Source of the DNA: Candidatus Hydrogenedentota bacterium
GTDB taxonomy: Bacteria; Hydrogenedentota; Hydrogenedentia; Hydrogenedentales; SLHB01
DNA length: 64,000 bases
Direction: 5' to 3'
NCBI GenBank assembly: GCA_963745075.1
Contig: CAVUWV010000024.1
Location: forward strand, 288,001 to 352,000
The notes beneath the pieces were generated by a model, which saw only the letters and a program-made list of their open reading frames with translations, was not told the DNA's origin and did no database searches. Shown here piece by piece: positions 5,067 through 62,276 of the stretch (the first letter of the stretch is position 1; each line of letters starts with the position of its first letter). Both the position numbers and the translations under genes were made by a program.

Positions 5067-5645
5067 CTACGGTTGCAACGGCGCGTTTTCCGCTTCCGGC
5101 GCGCGCTTGATGTCATCCCAGTCGCTGTACGCGTCCTCATTATCAATCCACTTCAGAAAGAAACGCTGCATGCGCTTGGGCTCGGCGGTGAAGACAAACC
5201 AGTCGTCAAGCTTTTCGTGGGATACCCAGAGGCGGCCCTTCTCGAGTCGGTCATTCATCCAGTCGTAGTCGAGGGTGCGGAGGCGAAACGTATCGCCGTC
5301 GCGCTCGTACTGCCAGATCGCATGGGCCGGAATAAGCATGAACGACGCAAAATCACCGATGCCCGATACCTCCGTGGCCTGTAAGTCGAGGAACTGGTAT
5401 TTCTTGAGTTGCACCAAATGCGCCGAGAGGGTGACGGGGTCGTCGTCCCCCGAAAGCACGGTGAGCGTATACTCGTTCTCGCCGGCCTTCTCGAATATCC
5501 ATCGGTCATCTTCCTCGCCCCAGGTACCCTCCAGTCCCGGGTCGTAGACAAGGTCTTCGTCCGTGTACAGCGGATGCAGGGAAAGCGGGATACAGCCGGA
5601 AACGGAAACGAACAGCAGAATGGATAAGGCGTTTCGCGGTTTCAT
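5067..5645 (-). CDS. Hypothetical lipoprotein
   Basis: Signal peptide with lipobox VSGC followed by SLHPLY. Confidence 0.7.
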   Translation of the reverse strand: MKPRNALSILLFVSVSGCIPLSLHPLYTDEDLVYDPGLEGTWGEEDDRWIFEKAGENEYTLTVLSGDDDPVTLSAHLVQLKKYQFLDLQATEVSGIGDFASFMLIPAHAIWQYERDGDTFRLRTLDYDWMNDRLEKGRLWVSHEKLDDWFVFTAEPKRMQRFFLKWIDNEDAYSDWDDIKRAPEAENAPLQP

Positions 5646-5756
5646 GGCAAGAACCCTCCGTGTGGCATAGGATGCCCCCCGTGCGAGGCGCCCCCCACTA
5701 AATATTCATCCTTATGGAACGGATTAGGTTGCCTTTCGGATTCCGAAATCTGTCGG

Positions 5757-6452
5757 CTACACGCATGGATCGCTCATAAGGTCACAGCCACCGGCGCTGT
5801 TCTCAGTACAGTGGAAATCTTCATTGCCGTTGTATTCACAATTCAACCCGATGCAGCAGTATTTGTTTCCCTTCGTGGAGGCGATTACCGTTCCGTCGGG
5901 TGCGGTGGCCATCCGCGAGGGTCGAATCACGTTTGCCTTCTTCGCCTTGGTAATCGTCTTGATTCGCTGGCCGTGTGATGGTCCGGAATAGCTCTTGAAC
6001 GCCGTCGAGAACAGCGCGTGGACCTTGTAGGTTGCCCATCCATTCGCGGCATCCAGAAAGCCTTCGGACACGAGGTCATTCACCTTGGCTTTGTCGCGGG
6101 CGTGGAAGTAGGGCACGAAAATGCCCGCTTCATCGACTTTTTCCGTCGCGGTCCAGACGGGATCTGCAGGATCAATTACACGCTTGCACAGGTCGATTAT
6201 GGGCTCCTTCTCCCACCCGTTCTGTTTGATCGCATCCACCAACGCCTGTAGACGGGCTTGCGTGTCCGGCAACCCGAGGGGGAACTGGATTTCCGTCGGA
6301 GCCTGCCCAACGCGCTCGGCGTGTTCCGTGAGAACCTCCGTGTACGCTCTTGACGAAAAATACTCGTCAAAAGTCATTTGGTGTATGAGATACAACATCC
6401 TCCGTTCGAGCATTCCAGTTTTGGGGTCTGTAGGTACGAAATAGTCTGCCAT
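5757..6452 (-). CDS. Hypothetical protein with six-cysteine C-terminus
   Basis: 231-aa ORF with upstream RBS-like GGAG; no recognisable family. Confidence 0.65.
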   Translation of the reverse strand: MADYFVPTDPKTGMLERRMLYLIHQMTFDEYFSSRAYTEVLTEHAERVGQAPTEIQFPLGLPDTQARLQALVDAIKQNGWEKEPIIDLCKRVIDPADPVWTATEKVDEAGIFVPYFHARDKAKVNDLVSEGFLDAANGWATYKVHALFSTAFKSYSGPSHGQRIKTITKAKKANVIRPSRMATAPDGTVIASTKGNKYCCIGLNCEYNGNEDFHCTENSAGGCDLMSDPCV

Positions 6453-13041: not shown

Positions 13042-14495
13042 TTAGACCACGTACGTGGATGCAGAGGTCGCGCCGCCGCGGCCGGTCCAGTTGGTGTGGA
13101 AGAACTCGCCGCGCGGTTTGTCGACTCGCTCATAGGTGTGCGCGCCGAAATAGTCGCGTTGCGCCTGCAACAGGTTGGCCGGCAGCCGTTCGCAACGGTA
13201 GCCGTCGAAATAGGCCAGCGCGGAACTGATGGCCGGTGCGGGAATGCCCATATTCACCGCGGTCGACACGACCCGCCGCCACGCTGCCTGGGCCTTGGAC
13301 ACGGCGTCCTGGAAGAACGGATCGAGCAGCAGGTTGACCAGGTCGTGGTTATCGTCGAAGGCTTCTTTGATCTTGCCCAGGAAAGCCGACCGGATGATGC
13401 AGCCGCCGCGCCACATCAGTGCGATACCGCCGTAGTTCAGGTTCCAGCCGTATTCCGCCGCGGCCGCGCGCATAAGCTGGTAGCCCTGCGCGTAACTCAC
13501 GATCTTCGACGCGTAGAGCGCCTGGCGAAGGTCGTCGACAAACGCTTTCTTGTCGCCGTCAAAGGCGCTCACCTGCCCCTTGAGGTGTTTGGCCGCTTCG
13601 ACGCGCTCATCCTTGATCGCGGAGAGACAACGCGCGAACACGGCCTCGCCGATCAGCGTGAGCGGTTGTCCCGAGTCCAGCGCCGCCACGACGGTCCATT
13701 TGCCCGTACCTTTCTGGCCGGCGCGTGTCCAGAATCAGATCGACCACGGCATTGCCGTCGTCGTCCTTGTGCCCGAGGATGTCGCGGGTGATTTCGATGA
13801 GATACGAATCCAGTTCGCCCTCGTTCCATTCGGCGAAGACCTCGTGCATTTCCTCGTTCGACATGCCGAGGCCCTGCTTCATGAGCTGATAGGTCTCGCA
13901 GATCATCTGCATGTCGCCGTATTCGATGCCGTTGTGGACCATCTTGACGAAGTGGCCCGCACCGCCTTCGCCGACCCAGTCGCAGCACGGCGTCGCCGTC
14001 TTCGGTCTTCGCGGCGATCCCCTGGAAGATCGGCTTCACGTGCTCCCACGCCGCCGGCGAGCCGCCCGGCATGATGGATGGTCCCTTGAGGGCCCCTTCT
14101 TCGCCGCCGGAAACGCCCGTGCCGATGTAAAGCAGGCCCTTGCTTTCGCAGTACTTGGCCCGCCGGATCGTGTCCGGGAAGTGGCTGTTGCCGCCGTCGA
14201 TGATGATGTCGCCCTTCTCCAGGTGCGGCGCCAATTGCTCGATGAAATCGTCCACCGGTTGGCCCGCCTTGACGAGCATCATCACCTTCCGCGGGCGCTT
14301 CAGGCTGGCGCAAAGTTCCTCGATGCTGTGGCAACCCTTAAAATTCTTGCCCTTGCCGCGGCCCTCGATGAACTTGTCCACCTTCGCCACGGTTCGGTTG
14401 TATACCGCAACGGAGAAGCCCTTGCTCTCCATGTTCAACACCAAATTCTCGCCCATGACGGCGAGGCCGATGAGTCCAATATCCATTTCTGCCAT
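13042..14495 (-). CDS. gnd: 6-phosphogluconate dehydrogenase (decarboxylating); two frameshifts near 13994 and 13724
   Basis: [40 protein letters not shown] and [12 protein letters not shown] spread over three frames. Confidence 0.92.
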
Positions 14496-14642
14496 GAGTA
14501 GCAATCTCCTTAACAGGTCTGTGTACCGAATTCCCCCAACGCATGCATTTCCCGCGTGTCGGATTCTCGAATGCCCGCACCGGACGTGGAGGAAACGCAC
14601 AATGAGCCGATTGTACTACAAAACGGGGGGCAGAACGAAGGG

Positions 14643-17284: not shown

Positions 17285-17399
17285 AGGGACCGCAGCTTGG
17301 TGAGATACGAGCGACGTTGCCCCGGCCCTTGAACCCCGGCAAGTGTTTTGCTTGAATGGGCGGACGCACGGGGGCCGTCAGCACCAAGGGAGCCAATAC

Positions 17400-19515
17400 G
17401 TGGAGAACACCGTAAAGAATCCGTTGTGGAAAGTGTCGAGCATTTTTCTTATCGCGCTGTCGCTGTCGATGGGGTGGGGGATACGCGGCAATTACGGGCA
17501 CGAGTCCGGCGCGTGGATTCCCGGCGCACTCGCGGCGATGGCGATCGCGATCTTGTCGCAGCGCGAGGACTGGCGGCAGCGGGTTCATTACTTTGCGCTG
17601 TTCGGCGGGCTCGGGCTCGGGTTCGGCGGTTCCATCTCGTACATGTATGCCCTGTCCTTTTCGAGTTCCGGCTATCTGCCGTCCGCGTGGTATGGGTACA
17701 TGCTGGTCTTCTTCGAAGGTGCGCTGTGGTGCGGGCTCGGCGGCGCAGGGATGGCCCTGGCCGCCACCGCGAAGCGCGACCGGCTCACGGCGCTCATCGT
17801 GCCCCATGTGTTTTGCTATTGCCGCGCTGATTCTGCACAAATTGATCGAAGAGCCCGTCGCGGCGTTTCTGAATCCGCCCGCGGCGGAAGTGATGGACGC
17901 CACCTGGCACCGGCAGAAGAGTCCGCTCTACTGGTTCGACGCGGACTGGTTCTCGGCGTTGATGGTGTTCTTGGGCGTGTGCCTTTACGACCTGTGGAAC
18001 CGTCGACGGGATGCCCGATATGCCATGTCGGCGCTGCTGCTGGTGGCATTTCTCGCGGGCGGCGCACTGGTCGGCTGGGGCGTGCAACAGGGCGTGCGCG
18101 CCGCGGGGATGGAATCGCAGGTCAGCAGCTTCTTGGATGTTCCTCTCGCCGACCCCAGCGCCATCAACCCCACGACGGGCATCGCCTACGGCGATGAGAT
18201 CAACGAGCGCACGGGTGAGCCCTGGGGTTTGGACAACTTCCTGACGAACTGGCCGCAACCCTTCAGCGACTATTCCCAACACGTCGGCTGGGGCGTCGGA
18301 CTTTTCCTGGGGTGGATGCTGTACTTCCTCAACTTCGGGAAGTGGCGCAACGACAGCGGGCTGTTCCTGTACATGTCCATGGGGTGGATGGTGGGCTTCA
18401 TGCTGTTCCCCGTCTTCGGGACGGTCGTGCTCTACCACGTGGGCGTGGCCCTCAAGAACGCGGGCCACGACGTGTACGTGCCGCTCTTCGGCGGGTTCCG
18501 GTTCATGCCGCCCCGGAGCGACGACTGGGCGGGGATTCTGGGCGTGTTCGTTGGCGCCATTATTTACTGCGCGCGCAAGGGGTGGAAACCCGTCGCGCTT
18601 GGCGCGAGCCTCAGCGGGCTCATCGGCGGCATCATGTTTGCCTCGATGAAATTTTTCCGGTTCCTCCTGCTCATTCCGGGCAACAAGTGGCTTCACGAAG
18701 GTACCGTGCCGTCGGACTGGGCCTTCTACCAGAGCGCAAACTGGCACAGCTTCCTCGAACAATCCCAGGGCTTCGGCCACGGCATCGCCTTCGCCGTCAC
18801 GGCGGCGGTGTTGTGGTCCCGCGTGAAGGTCCATCGCGACGAGCCCCGCGTACGGCTCTGGACTGAACCCTTCGCGGTCGGGTTCGTCGTGCTGTTCATG
18901 ACCTACGCAAACATCTACAAGAACGTAGCGGAGTGGACCGGCGGCCAGACGAAGGTCGTGCCTGAATCCATGAGGCCGCCGCTGATCGCGGAACTCTTCA
19001 CTGGCCCGAACCATCCGATTACCTTGAGCGCGCTGACCTGGTTCAACCTCGCGTGGATCGCGGCGGGACTGGCCTTGATCGGGCTCATGATCGTTCACCT
19101 GCGCGGCCGGCGCGTCGAGATGCTGCCGTCCAGTTGGGTCGGGCGCGGCCAACTCATGTACGTGCTCGTGCTGTGGATCATGGTCCTCGGCAATTTCGAA
19201 CGTGCACTGCCCAACTTCGACGAAAATCGTCTGATTACCGAATGGGTGATCCTGATCAACGCGTGCATCGCCACCTTCCTGCTCGGATACCTCCCGAAAC
19301 CGACCGTGGAACTGAACGTCGAAGAGCCGGCGCCGTTTCGTCCCGGCCTCGCCCGCGTGTGGGCCATCGGTCTGCCCGTCGCTTTCGTCCTCATGACCCT
19401 GTACACCTTCGCCGAGCGCGGTGTCCTCGGCAGCACGCCCGTCTATCAGGACCGCTTCGGCCCCAACGCCGAGTGGGCCATCAAACCCATTCTGAAGGAG
19501 GGGAAGCATCGGTAA
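17400..19515 (+). CDS. Large polytopic membrane protein of unknown function; frameshift near 17804
   Basis: GWGIRGNYGHESGA N-terminus (frame of 17343) joins ORF 17593..19515 at VP-MCFAIA; many hydrophobic segments. Confidence 0.75.
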
Positions 19516-19731
19516 GAGGCTGGAGTCCGGAGGCTGGAGGCGGGAGACTGGAGGGGCGCAGGAGAGTGAAGGGTGAAGACGTGCGTTTCGGTCGGGCTGG
19601 GGCGGCTCAGTGGGGCACGGGCGTCTCGCCCGTGGAGGGGGTCGAGTCGTAACGGCGGCTGGCGATGGGCTGTGTAATGGATCAAGACTGGGGAGGGGTA
19701 AAGAGCCAACGGGCGAGACGCCCGTTCCCCG
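19516..19731. repeat. Heptamer-like tandem repeat followed by a REP-like inverted pair (GGCACGGGCGTCTCGCCCGT)
   Basis: ggctgga-type units 19516-19575; 19610-19635 and 19708-19731 are inverted copies. Confidence 0.7.
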
Positions 19732-19892
19732 TTGAGCCCGCCCTCCCTGGAAACCCACAGCGCGGCGGTTGGAATTGCGTGACATCAACTTCGCGAAGTA
19801 GATTCAGCGTGGAGGCGACGCGCGGGGCCATGTAATTTCAGTTTCCTGTGGCGTTTTGCAGTGGTGCGATTCAATGGATGCATGAGGTGGTG

Positions 19893-20996
19893 ATGCGAAG
19901 TTTCTTCCTTGCGCTTGCTTTGGCGATCCCGGTTGGCACATTCGGTCAAGGACCCCCCGTACCGGAGGACCGGATCGTATCGTGGATGCAGGAACTCAAA
20001 CCGTTGCCGAAGATCCATTACTCATGGCCGCTTCCCTACGAAACGATTTCTGACGACGTGTTGTTCGAGTACGTACGTTTGACCCACGCGTCGTCGCTCA
20101 GTGGCGAGTGGAGCAATCAAGAGGCGATCGATCGGGCGGTTGCGGTTTGTGGCCGGGTGAACGCCACCAAGCCGGAGATCCCGGCAACCATCGGCGTGAA
20201 CTATTCGGTCTGGCACAGGCGTTTTGGCAAGGAGTTGCCACCGACCGATACCGGGCCAACCTGCGAGGCGGAACTCGATCACCTGCGAACGCGCATGGAA
20301 GCCATTCGGGACGGGGTGGCGGAAGCGATCGAGAAGCATCAGGTCAACGTGACGGTCAGCGCCATCCTGTTCGACTCGGAACGGTTCCATACGAAGAAAG
20401 ACGATGCGCAGTGGAACGCGGCGATCACACAGAAATACAATGCGGCCTACGAGGTTGTTCGTGATGTTTTCCCCGAGGTGCGCGTCGAATGGTATGCACG
20501 CGGAGCCGTCCAGCCGGGGGCCTCGGCCACCGGCTGGAGCGAGTCAAAGTATTTCACGCTGGACGAAAAGGGGGAGTCCTTTGGCTGCTCGCTGTACGAG
20601 GTGCCGGAGATCGGATACACGCGGGCGATCTTTCGCCGGACCGCTGAGAACGCAGCACGGCATGGCTGTGAGGAGGTGACGCCGTGGATTGCGTTGGCTT
20701 CCGGGTATCGGCGTCAGACGGACCAGTATGATAAATGGTCGATCGATTGGAATTACGACCTCATTTACTCCTGGCAACTTGGGCGGGAACTGAATAATTC
20801 GTGGTTCGGAGTGCCCGAACGGGCCGAGCGCTTCGCGCCGTGGAACAAGGCGACGATTGCGGTCTTCTATCCCGAGCCGTTTGGCCGGTCGCCGCACTGG
20901 GGGCAGCACTTCGTCGCGTACGTCCGTGGCGCGAACGGAATCAAGGAACTGCCGGAAGAAAACGTGTCCGCAGATGACGCAGATTCTCAGAGTTGA
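19893..20996 (+). CDS. Hypothetical secreted protein
   Basis: Signal peptide MRSFFLALALAIPVGTFG, RBS GAGGTG; Trp/Tyr-rich. Confidence 0.75.
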   Translation: MRSFFLALALAIPVGTFGQGPPVPEDRIVSWMQELKPLPKIHYSWPLPYETISDDVLFEYVRLTHASSLSGEWSNQEAIDRAVAVCGRVNATKPEIPATIGVNYSVWHRRFGKELPPTDTGPTCEAELDHLRTRMEAIRDGVAEAIEKHQVNVTVSAILFDSERFHTKKDDAQWNAAITQKYNAAYEVVRDVFPEVRVEWYARGAVQPGASATGWSESKYFTLDEKGESFGCSLYEVPEIGYTRAIFRRTAENAARHGCEEVTPWIALASGYRRQTDQYDKWSIDWNYDLIYSWQLGRELNNSWFGVPERAERFAPWNKATIAVFYPEPFGRSPHWGQHFVAYVRGANGIKELPEENVSADDADSQS

Positions 20997-21130
20997 ACAC
21001 AAGAGCTTAGCGGTCCACCGATTGCACTGATCCACAGCGATTTCAAGATAGCCTCGGACAGAAGACCGCGTGACCAGTATAGACGCCATATGTTCCTCTG
21101 CGTCCATTCCAAAGCATGATATGATGCTCT

Positions 21131-21228
21131 GCGAATACGGGTCTTATGCCCGCGTTGCCGGAGGGGTCTCTTGCCGCAATCGTGCGGCTCAAGGGTGTTA
21201 TCAAGAAACCAGATAACCGTTGTTCGGT
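21131..21228 (+). mobile_element. attI-like integron recombination site, copy A
   Basis: Similar to 22055-22151 up to GTT; ends ccagataaccgtt-GTTCGGT; similarity stops at the G|TT point. Confidence 0.6.
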
Positions 21229-21241
21229 GGGGGAAACGACA

Positions 21242-21700
21242 ATGGAACCACGAATCAGCATCATTACTCTGGGCGTCAATAGCATGCCGGTGTCGATCCG
21301 ATTCTACCGTGACGGGCTCGGATTCCCGACCGATGCGACGGACGACCGGAACTGGGCGATTTTCCGTACCAATGGAACGCGTCTCGCGCTTTACCCGAAG
21401 GCTGAACTCGCAAAGGACAGCGGCCCGGACACCACCCCTGCGGGCGGATTCTGCGGGATCACGCTGGCGCACAACGTCTCGAGTCGGGAGGACGTGGACA
21501 GGATCATTGAGCAGGCCGTCGCCGCCGGCGCCAGCCGGCTGAAGACTCCATCCGAAACGGAATGGGGGGGATACAGCGGGTATTTTGCCGATCCCGACGG
21601 ATATCTTTGGGAGGTCGCCTGGGGCGATGTTTGGGAGTATGACGAGAACGGAACCCTCTGGGGTGGATCACTGGGACCCAAACCATCACCGAACAAGTGA
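21242..21700 (+). CDS. VOC/glyoxalase family protein carried as an integron gene cassette
   Basis: MEPRISIITLGV...ITLAHNV...WGGYSGYFADPDGYLWEVAW; stop codon lies inside the attC. Confidence 0.9.
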   Translation: MEPRISIITLGVNSMPVSIRFYRDGLGFPTDATDDRNWAIFRTNGTRLALYPKAELAKDSGPDTTPAGGFCGITLAHNVSSREDVDRIIEQAVAAGASRLKTPSETEWGGYSGYFADPDGYLWEVAWGDVWEYDENGTLWGGSLGPKPSPNK

Positions 21701-21752
21701 GTCCACGTTTTTTGTCGCCGACGCGCCAAGACCGTGATTCATGACATTCGCC
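21688..21752 (+). mobile_element. attC site of the VOC cassette
   Basis: R'' ACCGAAC is the exact complement of the cassette start GTTCGGT; 5-bp spacer, L'' AGTCCACG, L' CGTGATT, 6-bp spacer, R' ATTCGCC. Confidence 0.75.
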
Positions 21753-21801
21753 GCGCAGAAAGGAGGCATCCCAACCGAGAAGTGCCTTCCGCTCTTCTGA
21801 T

Positions 21802-21887
21802 TGATTTGCAATTCAGATATTCGGGGCTTCGGGTTGCACGCCGCGGTCAAATTCCAAATCCGAATCACGAAATCCGAAACAAATCCG
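21802..21887. repeat. Loosely inverted heptamer-period repeats (AAATCCG-like)
   Basis: gatttgcaattcagatattcggggcttcgg ... caaattccaaatccgaatcacgaaatccgaaacaaatccg. Confidence 0.6.
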
Positions 21888-21993
21888 GATGGCCGAGAGG
21901 AGAAGGACCGAAACGTGGTATCGTGAATTTCCGAGCATGCACGCACGGTCTCGGCGGTGCAATGCAGCCTGGGTACGAGCGACCAGAAGCTGC

Positions 21994-22031
21994 GATTTCG
22001 ATCCCGATAGCGATCCCGATTTGGATGGGAA
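21994..22031 (+). repeat. Orphan copy of the hexamer (nnCGAT) repeat of the four-helix-bundle cassette
   Basis: gatttcgatcccgatagcgatcccgattt is identical to 22601-22629. Confidence 0.85.
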
Positions 22032-22054
22032 AGCGGAGGATGATTGAACATTTT

Positions 22055-22151
22055 GCGCATACAGGCTTTCGGTCAACATTGCCGGAGGGGCTGGTGCTGC
22101 GATCACGGGGCCTGAAGGTGTTATGATGAATCCCGAAAACAGTTGTTGGGG
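22055..22151 (+). mobile_element. attI-like integron recombination site, copy B
   Basis: ttgccggagggg...gtgttatgatgaatcccgaaaacagtt-GTTGGGG aligns with copy A; the end resembles the class 1 attI core CCCTAAAACAAAGTT. Confidence 0.6.
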
Positions 22152-22161
22152 CTGAACATCG

Positions 22162-22635
22162 AAATCGAAATCGGGATCGCTATCGGGATCGAAGAAATAT
22201 GGGACTTGGACACGAAAAGCTTGACGTTTACCGGCTTTCCATTGGCTACGTGGCGTGGGTCTACGAGAAGGCCGACAGCCTGAACGGCGTTCATCGAGCG
22301 GCAAGGGACCAATGGCTGCGTGCCAGTCAGTCGATCCCGTTGAACATCGCCGAAGGCAACGGCAAGACGGCCGCCGCGGATCGGCGGAGGTATTTCGAGA
22401 TTGCGCGAGGCTCGGCATTGGAGTGCGCGGCGATTCAGGATGTTCTGGTTGTCGGCAAGGCCCTGGATAACGTCGAGAGCCAAAGCCGCAAGGGGGAATT
22501 GGATCGTATGGCCGCAATGCTCAGCCGGCTGGGCGGAAGGGGCTACCAAGTCGGCGAGGAGATTGCCACGTACGGAAGCAGCGAAGACGCGTTCGATGCT
22601 GATTTCGATCCCGATAGCGATCCCGATTTCGATTT
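22162..22635. repeat. Perfect 32-bp inverted repeat (22162-22193 / 22604-22635) enclosing most of the four-helix-bundle ORF
   Basis: aaatcgaaatcgggatcgctatcgggatcgaa is the reverse complement of ttcgatcccgatagcgatcccgatttcgattt. Confidence 0.9.
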
Positions 22636-22678
22636 AGATGGGAAGGAATCCCAACATAGCGGATGCGCTGGACGCTGA
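22199..22678 (+). CDS. Four-helix-bundle protein (23S rRNA IVP / Avd-like family) carried as an integron cassette
   Basis: HEKLDVY, DQWLRASQSIPLNIAEG and FEIARGSALEC motifs. Confidence 0.9.
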   Translation: MGLGHEKLDVYRLSIGYVAWVYEKADSLNGVHRAARDQWLRASQSIPLNIAEGNGKTAAADRRRYFEIARGSALECAAIQDVLVVGKALDNVESQSRKGELDRMAAMLSRLGGRGYQVGEEIATYGSSEDAFDADFDPDSDPDFDLDGKESQHSGCAGR

Positions 22679-22709
22679 TTCTTCGCGTCAGCGATCCTTG
22701 TCGCTGCCA
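22649..22709 (+). mobile_element. attC site of the four-helix-bundle cassette
   Basis: R'' TCCCAAC matches the cassette start GTTGGGG at 6/7; ggatGcgctgGacgc pairs with gcgtcagcgatcc leaving two extrahelical bases; R' degenerate (GCTGCCA). Confidence 0.75.
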
Positions 22710-22825
22710 AATTTGCCATTCCCTCCCCCTGCATGCTAGGCTATCGTGTTTGTTTTCAACGCCCAAGCATTCCAACACACCTCCTACCGGGATCGATGGA
22801 AGTAGGGTAGAAAGGGGTTTCAATT

Positions 22826-23581
22826 TTGAGAAGGCCGCTCGTAGCTGGAAACTGGAAGATGAACCACCTCGTGGGGACGGCGGTGGAGACTACCAACGCG
22901 CTGAAAGCGTTGGTGGCGGATGTGGATTCGGTGGACATCGTGATTTGCCCGGTGTTTACGGCGCTGGACGCGGTCGGGAAGGCGGTGGCCGGGTCGAATA
23001 TCCAACTCGGCGCGCAGAATTGCTATTTCAAGGAAAGCGGCGCGTATACGGGCGAGCTTTCGCCGCAGATGTTGCAGGACGTGGGGTGCACGTGGACCAT
23101 TATCGGCCACAGCGAACGCCGGCAATACTTCGGTGAAACCGATGACGTTCTTAATCAAAAATTAAAGTTTGCGCTGGGTGCGGGGCTCAAGGTCATGTTC
23201 TGCATCGGCGAGACGTTGGAAGAGCGCGAAGGCGGCAAGATGAACGACGTGCTCATCCGCCAGGTGACCAACGGATTGCAGGGCTTGGCGGAATCGGATT
23301 TCGCGAACATTTCCATCGCCTACGAGCCGGTGTGGGCCATCGGCACGGGCGTGACCGCTTCGCCGGAGCAGGCCCAGGAGGCCCACGCCTTCGTGCGCGG
23401 GTTGGTCAAGGATCAGTTTGGTGCAACCGTCGCGGACGGTTTGCGGATACAATATGGTGGCAGCGTCAAACCGGACAACGCCGCGGAACTCATGGCGAAG
23501 CCCGACGTGGACGGTTCCCTCGTCGGCGGCGCCGCCCTCAAGGCGGAAAGCTTCGCGGGTATCGTGAAGGCGTCGATCTAG
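22826..23581 (+). CDS. tpiA: Triosephosphate isomerase
   Basis: AGNWKMN, IGHSERR, AYEPVWAIGTG, YGGSVKP. Confidence 0.97.
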   Translation: MRRPLVAGNWKMNHLVGTAVETTNALKALVADVDSVDIVICPVFTALDAVGKAVAGSNIQLGAQNCYFKESGAYTGELSPQMLQDVGCTWTIIGHSERRQYFGETDDVLNQKLKFALGAGLKVMFCIGETLEEREGGKMNDVLIRQVTNGLQGLAESDFANISIAYEPVWAIGTGVTASPEQAQEAHAFVRGLVKDQFGATVADGLRIQYGGSVKPDNAAELMAKPDVDGSLVGGAALKAESFAGIVKASI

Positions 23582-24271: not shown

Positions 24272-24326
24272 CATCTATATGAGGTTGACGAAAGTGCCGG
24301 TGAGCGTGAGAAATCCCGAGAAATCG

Positions 24327-24483
24327 ACATCCCCCTTGATCCCCCTTCAAAGGGGGAGGGGGCCGGCCGAGTTTATTGGAGTTTTTGGGAGTGCTGAGCC
24401 AGGCCTGGATTCTCTGTGGTGCGCTTCAAACGGAGGTCCGACACTTGTCGGTTCCCCCTTTGGAGGGGGATCAAGGGGGATGT
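24327..24483. repeat. REP-like inverted pair (ACATCCCCCTTGATCCCCCTTCAAAGGGGGA family)
   Basis: 24327-24357 and inverted 24452-24483; same family recurs at 42419-42587. Confidence 0.8.
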
Positions 24484-24549
24484 TTTTAAGTTCCCCTCAC
24501 CAGTCGCAACCTGAGTCCTCACGACCTTCGGGGGAAGGAGCGCGCGTCC

Positions 24550-25975: not shown

Positions 25976-27283
25976 ATGATAAAAGTAACGGAAATCCGAG
26001 ACGATGCTACCTTCGAGGCCGTGGTCAAACGCATCACCGGCCGCGGCGAGGACAACGAAGCCGATGCCCAGGAAGCGGAGAGACTCGACGCGACTCAGGC
26101 CATCGTCGACGACGTCAAAGCGCGCGGCGACGCCGCTGTCGTCGATCTGACCGAACGTTTCGACGGCGTAAAACTCGAACCGGATCAATTCGAGATCACT
26201 GTCAAGGACATGGACGCGGCCATGGCGGGCGTCGACAAGGAAACGCTCGCCGCGCTCGAACGTGCCCATGACAACATCTCGAAATTCCACAAGAAGCACC
26301 TTAGGCAATCTTGGGAAGAGACGGCTCCCGACGGGACCATCCTCGGCCAGCGGATCACGCCAATCGAAAGTGTGGGATTGTATGTCCCCGGCGGTACGGC
26401 CTTCTACCCCTCGTCGGTGCTGATGAACATCGTGCCTGCGCGTGTGGCCGGCGTGAAAGAGTTGATCATGGTCTCGCCACCTTCGTATGAAGGGAGCATT
26501 CATCCGCTTGTCCTGGCGGCCGCCCGGATTGCGGGGGCATCGCGCGTCTTCCGCATCGGTGGAGCGCAGTCTATCGCCGCGCTCGCCTACGGCACGGAGT
26601 CCATTCCATCCGTGCTCAAGATCGCGGGACCGGGGAACATTTACGTGACGCTCGCGAAGCGGCTGGTGTCGTCGATCTGCGATATCGACAAGGACGCCGG
26701 ACCGTCCGAAGTCGTGGTCCTGGCAGACGCGACCTCGGATCCCGACCAGGTGGCCCTCGAGCTTCTTGCGCAAGCCGAACACGATGTCGACGCGCGCGCC
26801 ATGCTCGTTACGTCGTCGGCGGAATTGCTCACGTCCGTGCGCGAGTCCATCACGAATCACCTCGATACGTTGTCCCGGGCGACCATTATTCGCAAGGCGC
26901 TCAAGGAATGCGGGGAAGTCTTTATCGTTCGGACCATCGAAGAAGGCGCGCAGTTGACCAACTTAATTGCGCCCGAGCACCTGTCCATCCAGACCGAGGA
27001 TCCCCGCGCCCTGTTCGATGCGATTCCGAACGCGGGCTGTGCGGTCCTCGGCGGCGGCACCTCCGTCGCAGTCGGAGACTACTACGCAGGGCCGAATCAC
27101 ATCCTGCCTACGGGGCGCAAGGCGCGCTTTTCCTCGCCCTTGACGGCGGAGGATTTCCGTAAGGTTACCAGTATTATTTCCTTTTCGCCGGAGCGTATGA
27201 AAGAAGTGGGGGACGACATCATCCGGCTTGCTAAGGCCGAGAAGCTCGATGCCCACGCCCGCGCCGTGGAGATTCGCAAATGA
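25976..27283 (+). CDS. hisD: Histidinol dehydrogenase
   Basis: GLYVPGG, GGAQ, GPGN, AGPSE, QAEHD, APEH, GPNHILPT. Confidence 0.96.
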   Translation: MIKVTEIRDDATFEAVVKRITGRGEDNEADAQEAERLDATQAIVDDVKARGDAAVVDLTERFDGVKLEPDQFEITVKDMDAAMAGVDKETLAALERAHDNISKFHKKHLRQSWEETAPDGTILGQRITPIESVGLYVPGGTAFYPSSVLMNIVPARVAGVKELIMVSPPSYEGSIHPLVLAAARIAGASRVFRIGGAQSIAALAYGTESIPSVLKIAGPGNIYVTLAKRLVSSICDIDKDAGPSEVVVLADATSDPDQVALELLAQAEHDVDARAMLVTSSAELLTSVRESITNHLDTLSRATIIRKALKECGEVFIVRTIEEGAQLTNLIAPEHLSIQTEDPRALFDAIPNAGCAVLGGGTSVAVGDYYAGPNHILPTGRKARFSSPLTAEDFRKVTSIISFSPERMKEVGDDIIRLAKAEKLDAHARAVEIRK

Positions 27284-28354
27284 AGTACGGCCGCGAAATC
27301 CTTGCCAACGTAGAGGGCTATGTGCCCGGCGAGCAACCGTCGGGTTCCGTCATCAAGCTGAACACCAACGAGAATCCCTATCCGCCGTCCCCGCGCGTGT
27401 TGGACGCGCTGTGGTCTCTGGCCGCGGAGAACGTGCGCAAATACCCGGATCCGGTGTCGCTCCGTCTGCGCCAAGCCTGCGCCGAACGGTATGCGTATGA
27501 GAGCGCTGATTGGGTGATTGCGGGCAACGGGATGGACGAGTTGCTGTCGCTGGTGATTCGTACCCTCGTCGATCCGGGCGACACGATACTGTCGCCCTAT
27601 CCGACGTACACGCTTGTACGAGACGCTCGCGGCCCTCCATGGCGCCAAGTATACGACCGTGGATTTGGGTGATCGCTTCCAATTGCCGGAAGAATTCTTC
27701 TCGACGCCCGCGAAACTCTGTTTTCTGCCGCGCCCGAACGCGCCCTCAGGTGTCTGTGCGCCGCGCGAGGCAGTGGAACGGCTATGTGCGTCTTTCGATG
27801 GGGTGGTCGTGATTGACGAAGCCTACGTGGATTTTGCAAACGACAACTGCATGGATTTCCCTCAACGTTACGAAAATGCCATCGTGATGCGAACGTTCTC
27901 AAAGTCGTTCAGCCTGGCGGGAATGCGTTTGGGAGTCGCCGTTGCGCGACCGGAAATCATTGCGGAGTTCTTGAAGGTCAAGGATTCGTATAACCTGAAT
28001 CTTGCAACGCAGTCCGCCGGCCTCGCCGCGATTCAAGACTACGACTACATGCTTTCCAACGTGTCGCGGGTTAAGACCACGCGCGATCGGCTTTCGGCGT
28101 CGCTGCGGGATTTCGGGTTCGACGTCCCCAAGTCGGAATCGAATTTCGTGCTGGCCCGGTGGAATCGTGAGCCGTCCGCAAAGGAAATCTTTGAAAGGCT
28201 GAAGGAGCGGTTAATCTACGTGCGGTATTTCGACGCGCGCGGATTAGACAATGCCCTTCGGATCACGGTCGGCACCGATTCGGAAGTGGACGCCCTGCTC
28301 GATGCTCTGCGCGGTATCCTTTACGGAAAGCCGGATACCACCACTGGCGAATAG
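27280..28354 (+). CDS. hisC: Histidinol-phosphate aminotransferase; frameshift near 27613
   Basis: KLNTNENPY, GNGMDE, IDEAY, RTFSKSFSLAGMRLG, LRITVG over two frames. Confidence 0.92.
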
Positions 28355-42333: not shown

Positions 42334-42418
42334 GGGACGCGTCGATGTTGAATCGTAATAGACGGAATTTCATTCAGTCATCGTCTTTGTTCGTGGCTGC
42401 ATCTGAAAACATGAAAAG

Positions 42419-42587
42419 AACATCCCCCTTGATCCCCCTTCCAAGGGGGAATGTCGCTCGCCGGCTTCTCTCGTCATTCGCTACGCGTTTGCGACCCACG
42501 TTTAGCCAGGGCAGCGATACGCGCCGCGGAGCGCGCGCGAAAATTCCCCCTTTGAAGGGGGCAGACGCGAAGCGTCGAGGGGGATGT
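42419..42587. repeat. Second REP-like inverted pair of the CCCCCTT..AAGGGGG family
   Basis: acatcccccttgatcccccttccaaggggga ... ttccccctttgaagggggcag...gagggggatgt. Confidence 0.75.
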
Positions 42588-44721: not shown

Positions 44722-44799
44722 AACAATAGAACGCGGATGACGCGGATTGAACGGATTCGCGCCGATCAATTAAATCCGCGTCATCCGCGTTCTATTGTT
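44722..44799. repeat. Perfect 27-bp inverted repeat between convergent genes, 9-bp internal period; probable bidirectional terminator
   Basis: aacaatagaacgcggatgacgcggatt / aatccgcgtcatccgcgttctattgtt. Confidence 0.85.
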
Positions 44800-60644: not shown

Positions 60645-61054
60645 ACGTGCCTTCCTGGTGCGCAGCCGTTGGAAAGAGAGTTCTTAGACAAAGCCCAATC
60701 AGGTACCCCTGCGCAGCATCCCCATGCAGCTTTCCGTGTGCGACAATTGTTCTGCCGAGACTCTGTCTCAAATACTGTCTCTGGTTTAATCGAGGCAATG
60801 TTTGTGTGTCAAATCCGGATCGTCATGACGCGCTTCATCAGGGCGATAGGCGAAACCGTGCACTTGCTGTCCTTCACCCTGGTTTGCCCATGATTCGGTT
60901 CTGGCTATGCGCTGCCATAGGTTGCGCGTCGCGATAAGACGCGGTTGCTGCGGTGCATCTTGCGATTGCCCCAATCTTGTGGTGGTTAGGCTCAAGGTAC
61001 CAATCCTTGCTCTCGATTCGGCATCCCGGCGAAATATCCCCCTAAAAATATACC

Positions 61055-61083
61055 TTGCTATCCCCCTGAGAATATGGTATAAA
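61055..61083 (+). promoter_or_regulatory. Sigma70 promoter of RRM gene 1
   Basis: TTGCTA-N17-TATAAA with TG extension; same boxes at 61714-61742. Confidence 0.75.
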
Positions 61084-61287
61084 CATGTTCCCTGAAGGGG
61101 AAGACGGGTTGTCGTGCCTTGTGGCGTGGCGGTTGCCCGGTGTTCCTGGCCTTTGGATGACGATGCTGCCAATGACTCCGCTGGATGCTTGATGTACTGC
61201 TTCTTGCCTTTCACTTGGTCCCTTCGTTCCCCCGACGTCTCGAACCATCTCCTGAAAACGCAGTAGAACTGCAAAAGGAACCAGTGA

Positions 61288-61584
61288 ATGAATATCTATG
61301 TAGGCAATTTGGCGTACGAAACCACCGAAAACGACCTGAAACAAGCGTTTGAGGTCTACGGAAAAGTCGACACCGCGCGGACCATCGTCGACAAGTACAC
61401 GAACCAGTCCAAGGGCTTCGGTTTTGTGGAAATGCCGGACAGCAGCGAGGCCCAGGCGGCCATCAGCGGCATGGACGGCAAAGACATGGGCGGTCGCTCG
61501 ATCAAGGTCAACGAAGCTCGCCCGAAGACCGAAGGCGGTCGTGGCGGCGGCGGTGGTTACGGCGGCGGCGGTCGCTCCTGGTAA
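61288..61584 (+). CDS. RRM RNA-binding protein with Gly-rich tail, copy 1
   Basis: IYVGNL (RNP2) and KGFGFVEM (RNP1). Confidence 0.95.
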   Translation: MNIYVGNLAYETTENDLKQAFEVYGKVDTARTIVDKYTNQSKGFGFVEMPDSSEAQAAISGMDGKDMGGRSIKVNEARPKTEGGRGGGGGYGGGGRSW

Positions 61585-61616
61585 CCGGTTAAGACCGTTT
61601 CATAAGTGTACACTTT

Positions 61617-61654
61617 CGGGGGTCGTATGGCGCAAAAGGGCCATACGACCCCCG
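61617..61654 (+). terminator. Hairpin after RRM gene 1
   Basis: cgggggtcgtatgg...ccatacgacccccg. Confidence 0.7.
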
Positions 61655-61713
61655 GTTCTGTTGTTCTCCTTCCCGTCCCGGTCGCGGCGGGATATCCCAC
61701 TAAAAAATATACC

Positions 61714-61742
61714 TTGCTATCGGCCTCAAAGTATGGTATAAA
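61714..61742 (+). promoter_or_regulatory. Sigma70 promoter of RRM gene 2
   Basis: TTGCTA-N17-TATAAA with TG extension. Confidence 0.75.
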
Positions 61743-61933
61743 AGGACTTCCAGAAGGGGAAGATGGGTTGCCTCGGTTGGTGCCCGGTGTTCCTGGCCTT
61801 TGGATGACGATGCTACCAATGACGCCGCTAGATGCTCGCTGTACCGCTTCTTGCCATTCGCTTGGTCCCTCGCTTCACCTAATGTCTCGAACCATCCCTG
61901 TAAACGCAGCAAAACTGCAAAAGGAACCCGTGA

Positions 61934-62245
61934 ATGAACATCTACGTAGGTAACCTGCCGTACGAAACCACCGAGTCCGACCTGAAAGAGGCCTTTGAGG
62001 CCTACGGCAAGGTTGACACCGCGCGGACCATCGTCGACAAGTACACGAACCAGTCCAAGGGCTTCGGTTTCGTGGAAATGCCGGATAGCGCCGAGGCTCA
62101 GGCGGCCATCGCCGGTCTGGACGGCAAAGACATGGGCGGCCGCGCCTTGAAGGTCAATGAAGCTCGCCCGAAGACCGAAGGCGGTCGTGGTGGCGGCGGT
62201 GGCTACGGCGGCGGCGGCGGTGGTCGCGGCGGCCGCTCCTGGTAA
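61934..62245 (+). CDS. RRM RNA-binding protein with Gly-rich tail, copy 2
   Basis: IYVGNL and KGFGFVEM; close paralogue of copy 1. Confidence 0.95.
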   Translation: MNIYVGNLPYETTESDLKEAFEAYGKVDTARTIVDKYTNQSKGFGFVEMPDSAEAQAAIAGLDGKDMGGRALKVNEARPKTEGGRGGGGGYGGGGGGRGGRSW

Positions 62246-62276
62246 CCAGGTAAGACCACACTACACAGCTCACAAC

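Follow-up and report, generated by a model that had tools for sequence, protein, structure and literature searches.

Two stacked attI-headed cassette units without an integrase gene in a Hydrogenedentota genome, probable remnants of an island-borne integron

The window analysed here is a 64-kb stretch of a Candidatus Hydrogenedentota genome (G000:C24:288001-352000; G000 denotes this genome), and it carries two units stacked 920 bp apart, all of whose features are given on the forward strand. Unit 1 begins with a repeat that we call attI-1 (21078..21224, crossover at G21222|TT), whose left arm corresponds to the spacer between intI and the crossover in integrons of the inverted-integrase type. 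A hybrid attI/attC R box, GTTCGGT (21222..21228), forms the start of cassette 1 and is the exact complement of the R'' box at 21688. The cassette contains an intact ORF of 152 aa from the VOC/glyoxalase family (21242..21700; PF00903, E 3.7e-17) and ends in the hairpin attC-1 (21688..21752). Next come a 95-bp stub of an ICE-like island (21746..21840), which consists of a hairpin and the 3' end of a small reverse-strand gene, and an abundant dispersed short repeat (21849..21940) with 58 BLAST matches in the genome. These are followed by the 3' tail remnant of another four-helix-bundle-type cassette (21959..22033), which carries a 33-nt repeat of 22601-22633. The remnant has no attC and lies directly before attI-2, and the segment 21747-22144 is a mosaic. 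The second repeat, attI-2 (22034..22147, crossover at G22145|TT), is 5'-truncated at about -114 and heads an intact ORF of 159 aa from the four-helix-bundle (23S rRNA IVP) family (22199..22678; PF05635, E 2.3e-18). This ORF is flanked by 37-nt inverted repeats (22157-22193 and 22604-22640), and cassette 2 ends in attC-2 (22649..22709). The upstream region of the host gene tpiA (22703..22830) adjoins it, with likeness to congeners starting at the attC-2 crossover.

Both repeats terminate in AAC-N4-G|TT, and their likeness ceases after the GTT. They are 74% identical across a 73-nt BLAST core (E 9e-5 against the genome) and 68% identical across 112 aligned nucleotides. An earlier note on this DNA had reported a repeat that occurs twice, stops at G|TT and is followed each time by one ORF and a hairpin; we find the same arrangement, with both ORFs intact and both copies longer than described there. 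The note had also called the copies duplicated. As a recent local duplication this is not supported, given that each copy is closer to one from another genus (G092:C23; 83% for attI-1 and 75% for attI-2) than the two are to each other. Its suggestion that such heads are dispersed is borne out by five in G000, namely the two in the window, clear copies at C13 and C31, and a weak fifth at C33 that is followed by an attC scoring 35.9 bits with our covariance model.

Among the G000 copies, the final 32 nucleotides are 81% conserved versus 64-65% for the remainder, and differences from the G092:C23 copy amount to 16% in the last 32 nucleotides versus 23% upstream (p = 0.067). The crossover region therefore has no significant excess of conservation, which points to decay, while the better-conserved last 32 nucleotides leave room for continued use. 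We considered and rejected the possibility that the element is a folded attC-like or RNA structure; its consensus fold has a positive covariation term and few two-sided changes. An Rfam search returned nothing meaningful. A sigma-70 scan of 20900-22850 returned 0 promoters, and thus no Pc was identified in the window copies.

The identity of the repeat emerges from its position in other integrons. Our independent test set comprised 80 loci of the matching IntI clade, 71 with a mappable IntI C-terminus and 60 with at least 250 nt beyond it. A profile built from only the four G000 copies matched 159-171 nt after the stop codon of a co-oriented intI in 8 of the 71 unrelated loci. With a wider profile there were nine matches (one in the training set), every one at the same 159-171 nt position and none elsewhere in those loci. 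Most of the remaining printed loci show, by eye, a diverged layout of box, spacer and GTT, with the G|TT about 170 nt after the stop. Conversely, a profile from intI-linked loci only matched attI-1 at positions -146..0 (E 4.5e-20) and attI-2 with E 3.8e-7; the value of 6.5e-21 for attI-2 comes from a model that includes attI-2 itself. Every one of the 99 attC-model matches in these 80 loci has the orientation of intI. One protein of the phylum, encoded at G093:C9, reaches 462 bits with TIGR02249, above the cut-off of 265, and shares 82-86% identity with proteins of the 80-locus set. Judged by sequence and position, the repeat is the true attI of an integron clade with an inverted integrase, in which intI points toward attI; the earlier note had already read it as attI-like from the letters of the window.

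Other features of this clade were seen in the same loci. Throughout (L059-L138), the attI box motif is also present 20-40 nt after the intI stop, 130-150 nt before the crossover and often in a dyad-like form; a further locus (L052) has a deletion between two such boxes. In 4 of the 80 loci (L063, L116, L123 and L137) an attC is located upstream of intI on the same strand, so the intI-attI platform can sit within a cassette array.

The two hairpins rank first and second of six covariance-model matches in the 64-kb window, on the expected strand, with weak scores of 13.2 bits (attC-1) and 13.0 bits (attC-2), E being about 0.5 for each. The earlier note had called for a check with an attC model; with the present one the geometry of both hairpins fits, at low scores. 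The model was made from 37 sites chosen by hand among 79 rule-based candidates behind intI genes. It was used in place of the rule-based detector because the latter is too loose, reporting a candidate at 141 of 150 random GTT sites. The bottom strand of attC-1 folds, and bottom-strand folding z-scores are -1.2 for attC-1 and -2.4 for attC-2. Both R' boxes are damaged and lack the GTT, a point overlooked in the note: that of attC-1 reads ATTCGCC (A|TT), and that of attC-2 reads GCTGCCA (G|CT) and is made of host sequence.

Complementarity between each R'' box and its own cassette start had been noticed before and was confirmed, with 7/7 positions in cassette 1 (ACCGAAC/GTTCGGT) and 6/7 in cassette 2 (TCCCAAC/GTTGGGG). 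The property extends to 23 attI-attC pairs, hand-picked among the 37 copies whose GTT is intact and that have 400 nt or more downstream, and kept where a correctly oriented model match was present. In these pairs 72 of 92 variable R-box bases are complementary versus a permutation mean of 40.8, and none of 20,000 permutations was as high. By their sequence anatomy, both window ORFs are integron cassettes inserted by IntI at G|TT, in agreement with the earlier proposal. The damaged attC ends would probably lock both intact cassette genes in place now.

Homologues of cassette 2 have G|TTGGG at their start, and in 21 of 80 the ORF ends in an attC match. Three overlapping loci (L257-L259) carry such a homologue at an attI, and the end of intI is visible in two of them. 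In the 16 of these 80 homologous loci (L256-L335) that were read by eye, four-helix-bundle cassettes often stand at G|TT behind unrelated upstream DNA with a damaged R' box, a pattern resembling that of a frequent lone, SALIN-type cassette. At C13 of G000 (L006:4555-6696) the cassette is 2.1 kb long with a 7/7 R'' match, and by eye its content resembles restriction-modification genes interrupted by stops and frameshifts. At C31 (L007, about 5300-6382) the attC of the first cassette is trimmed to its R'' box and fused to a second, VOC cassette, which shares 91-92% identity with copies that G103 and G104 carry at other loci.

The earlier note found no integrase in the window, and there appears to be none in the genome. 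In G000 (89.7% complete), window included, the best TIGR02249 match scores 88 bits versus the cut-off of 265, and a search with 57 clade proteins and a DNA profile returned only weak tyrosine-recombinase matches of ~30% identity. Neither window copy adjoins an intI gene as in a complete integron, and the flanks of both are assembled. Three public DNA runs with small shares yielded no contig that spans the units. A 42-nt intI stub that retains the final intI codons is present at C31. The search for the element in other genomes that the note had recommended yielded further copies, including those beside intI in the test loci. Of 135 genomes of the phylum, 29 contain the element (49 matches) and 6 an IntI above the TIGR02249 cut-off. 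Of 48 copies examined, the remaining one being under the local threshold, 0 lie behind an intact intI. These look like enzyme-less landing sites scattered through many genomes of the group and now mostly fossils. At another locus (G131:C587:7149-7343) we observed a 77-aa open frame that encodes only the C-terminal catalytic part of IntI and has its own start.

The orphan copies have ragged left ends, from -55 to -348, with no common junction, and several retain C-terminal codons of intI. Internal deletions that fuse 5' parts or flanks of intI to its 3' part are found at six loci (L009, L035, L038, L058, L140 and L143). Tandem heads are likewise found in L009, L141 and L145 and, less clearly, in L152 and L057. 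The ragged ends, intI stubs and internal intI deletions give the heads the appearance of deletion remnants of complete integrons, and their cassettes may therefore have been captured in cis before intI was lost. Capture in trans, which the earlier note inferred, seems the less likely course. A common G|TT left boundary for the orphan heads and a conserved 5' flank of intI across the clade were both looked for and not found. A tree of the 150-nt element groups both window copies and that of C13 with representatives of other genera in a clade of nine (bootstrap 95), none of them linked to intI; the underlying alignment is short, and support for inner branches is poor. The crossover is lost in several relatives' copies (G093), and the attI that goes with the intact IntI of G093 belongs to another subfamily. 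Comparisons with empty sites for C13, C31 and C33, at base level only for C13, place the insertions in variable intergenic regions with unclean boundaries, and no tRNA target was found near the heads in seven loci.

Four orphan heads from three genera (G000:C13, G093 twice and G092:C19) share a promoter-like motif, TTGCCT-17-TATACT, directly left of the intI stub. The motif was not found upstream of the 80 intI genes, and the deletion junctions behind it differ among the four copies (-170, -216, -204 and -126). In addition, the box motifs of orphan copies are more conserved than their spacers (0.82-0.84 versus 0.60-0.66).

The right end of unit 1 leads to a second element. Longer copies reveal the stub as part of the small reverse-strand gene, which in intact islands follows a DUF2201/VWA-like gene and is present in 25 of 135 genomes, often twice. 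A stub also follows the attC at C13 in G000 (66/92 identical), where the dispersed short repeat again stands behind it. A model of the stub gave 13 matches in 9 of 135 genomes (five being training sequences), and in 8 of the 13 the stub starts at the R' box directly behind an attC-model match. Pattern scans for it gave one match in genome contigs and 0 in metagenome contigs. As a universal right arm of the clade's attI the stub was rejected, with 0 matches in 93 loci that include all 80 intI loci.

All 13 island regions fetched from other loci are free of attC, attI and intI matches, and in these the operon continues, where the contig allows, into a MoxR-type ATPase gene. Integron remains occupy the space between the start of the ATPase gene and the hairpin in three relatives (G131:C587, G088:C51 and G086:C96). 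In the last of these a 3.6-kb block with a weak attI lies between both island flanks, and G130:C119 retains the left flank. Pfam matches in the 47 of 82 ORFs scanned include GP88, an AEP primase, MoxR-VWA, weak TrwB/HerA-like ATPases and defence-like cargo. We call the island ICE-like on account of the GP88, primase and weak TrwB/HerA-like matches and the defence-like cargo; the same ORFs, from one-sided regions, gave no match to an island integrase or relaxase, and the ends of the island were not found in them.

Unit 2 lacks the stub and ends differently. The site corresponding to the attC-2 junction reads G|TT in two congeners (G105 and G106) of the five compared; G107 differs, and G103 and G104 are too distant. 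Alignment with these two congeners establishes the junction itself. The congener sequence to the left of the tpiA target site is absent from the window, which fits either a deletion made by IntI or an insertion at a secondary site. Both attC x attG insertion and off-site excision have been demonstrated in the work described in 10.1101/2022.09.11.507474.

We favour, as the rather probable explanation, that the units are decaying heads, stacked one behind the other, of an integron that was carried by an island and had its intI deleted. The integron would have sat inside the ICE-like island between the MoxR-type ATPase gene and the small gene next to the DUF2201/VWA-like gene, a context that comparison of the flanks establishes in the three relatives. 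Mobility of the island is suggested by its patchy, multi-copy occurrence (25 of 135 genomes) and by the weak TrwB/HerA-like and primase matches, and the island may have arrived repeatedly at several loci. Cassettes would have been captured in cis, most likely while intI was still present, and varied deletions of intI and most of the island DNA may have left heads that consist of attI, one to a few cassettes and sometimes the stub. Two such remnants would then have become stacked in the window, unit 1 still ending in the island stub, with the host G|TT before tpiA presumably left by IntI acting on a secondary (attG-type) site of the chromosome. Several results speak against this account: no intact island was found to carry a complete intI-attI-array, the integron block meets the island on its left at something other than a clean G|TT, G000 has no other trace of the island, and the stub is absent from the 80 intI loci. 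The tpiA junction could also be explained if attI rode on a cassette-like circle, IntI excising the segment between an upstream secondary site and attC (or making a delta-attI-type cassette) and placing it in a chromosomal G|TT. On this view unit 2 would have come as a passenger, which is compatible with the island model. The fusion of attC-2 to the host G|TT, the truncated 5' end of attI-2 after a cassette-tail remnant, the attC upstream of co-oriented intI in 4 of 80 loci and the block with a weak attI between island flanks at G086:C96 all agree with this, and there are precedents in 10.1101/2022.09.11.507474 (attC x attG, off-site excision) and PMC12901181 (delta-attI cassettes). We nevertheless regard it as unlikely, since the window has no G|TT junction on the host's left side and the congeners' sequence left of the target is absent, the left ends of orphan copies share no GTT, and attI1 itself is reported in 10.1101/2022.09.11.507474 as not inserted into the genome above background.

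The shared promoter-like motif, the trend in conservation and the intI-free clade keep alive a reading in which IntI acts in trans. Heads composed of promoter, intI stub and attI would spread as non-autonomous mini-integrons, be selected, and load cassettes through the IntI of a passing element. The motif does occur in four copies from three genera with different cassettes, the nine-copy attI clade with both window copies has no intI-linked member, and boxes are better conserved than spacers in the orphans. However, the deletion junctions behind the motif differ, conserved boxes may be a matter of inheritance or of having been picked with a profile, several copies in G093 have lost the crossover, both window attC are damaged, no IntI was found in G000, and the intact G093 IntI goes with another attI subfamily. 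On balance we think this improbable. We would give a similarly low chance to its extension to the phylum, that Hydrogenedentota possess a non-autonomous promoter-attI head without intI, spread by an ICE-like island, that provides distributed capture and expression pads whenever an IntI passes; if true, anaerobic lineages would contain many small CALINs and SALINs that are in fact pads headed by an attI and invisible to current tools. A further reading, an ordinary dispersed repeat or promoter beside chance hairpins, draws on the 13-bit scores of both hairpins and on a genome rich in short repeats. It is refuted by the linkage to intI, the element holding a fixed position behind intI in other phyla, and we give it next to no credence; the R-box permutations, the cassette 2 homologues at true attI sites and the empty sigma-70 and Rfam searches also count against it. 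As to the decaying heads that we favour, damaged attC ends, destroyed crossovers in relatives and the lack of a significant excess of conservation at the crossover (p = 0.067) make present activity doubtful, and the window units are probably inactive.

Inverted-integrase arrangements are described for the Treponema type (PMC3607928, PMC4889954), and archaeal integrons also have attI downstream of intI (PMC9668308). The units described here resemble inverted-integrase integrons in an attI about 170 nt downstream of co-oriented intI in the clade, a G|TT crossover and attC-ended cassettes. They differ in that intI is deleted and that several attI occur per genome, two of them in tandem, whereas the description in PMC3607928 has one attI per integron. 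With two attC within 1 kb and no intI nearby, the window conforms to a small CALIN (at least two attC, no intI nearby; PMC4889954), albeit with weak attC scores. One end, an attC joined to a chromosomal G|TT, is like a SALIN (10.1101/2022.09.11.507474). That definition excludes other nearby att sites, and here each cassette lies behind an attI; unlike in CALINs and SALINs, its own recognisable attI heads each window cassette. As described in PMC4889954, IntegronFinder (2016) seeks only exact class 1-3 attI, and heads such as these are thus invisible to it.

The truncated attI-2 recalls the second, truncated attI within arrays of class 1 and 2 integrons that arises with delta-attI-type cassettes (PMC12901181). 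In those clinical integrons delta-attI replaces the cassette attC and intI is present, whereas the two window cassettes have each kept an attC, their attI copies share 68% identity and no intI remains. Eroded Xanthomonas integrons (10.1101/2025.06.18.660453) have likewise lost or inactivated intI repeatedly, leaving their cassettes frozen, there at one ancestral locus (ilvD) and here at many unlinked loci tied to an island. Already published, then, are CALINs from intI loss (PMC4889954), attG insertion (10.1101/2022.09.11.507474) and truncated attI in class 1/2 arrays (PMC12901181); PMC10127599 and PMC9892861 provide background only. Our literature search, which reached few subscription journals, found no publication that describes several integrase-less attI heads in one genome or any Hydrogenedentota integron. 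An integron inside a mobile island is familiar from genomic islands of the SGI1 type, for which tandem island integration is known. The present case differs in its integron clade and its island, and comprises only decayed remnants of a putatively mobile island.

How small CALINs and lone cassettes originate is an open question in the field. According to 10.1101/2022.09.11.507474, no recognisable intI pseudogene lies near 95% of CALINs, and insertion at attG is proposed there. In this phylum the attI head outlasts intI and is more widespread (29 versus 6 of 135 genomes). Because the head survives the loss of intI, a clade-specific attI profile separates a decayed integron from a cassette dropped at attG. 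For an environmental integron clade that is widespread, the analysis defines the attI and points to a carrier island.

Several other features were observed in the window. At 13042-14600, 17343-19515 and 27280-28354, genes lie in pieces across different frames, suggesting indel errors in the assembly, and caution is thus needed for single-base claims; by eye we take the broken genes to be similar to a 6-phosphogluconate dehydrogenase-like and a hisC-like gene. A 35-bp inverted repeat with an 8-nt loop (44722-44799; z-score -10.6) has no attC-model match. Paired intergenic inverted repeats of 31-36 nt (24320-24487, 42413-42451 and 19599-19743) form REP/MITE-like families that are common to congeners at other positions. 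Finally, 61044-62257 holds two tandem copies, 81-88% identical and spaced about 646 nt apart, of an upstream region and a short gene with a glycine-rich tail, perhaps a duplicated RNA-binding protein gene.
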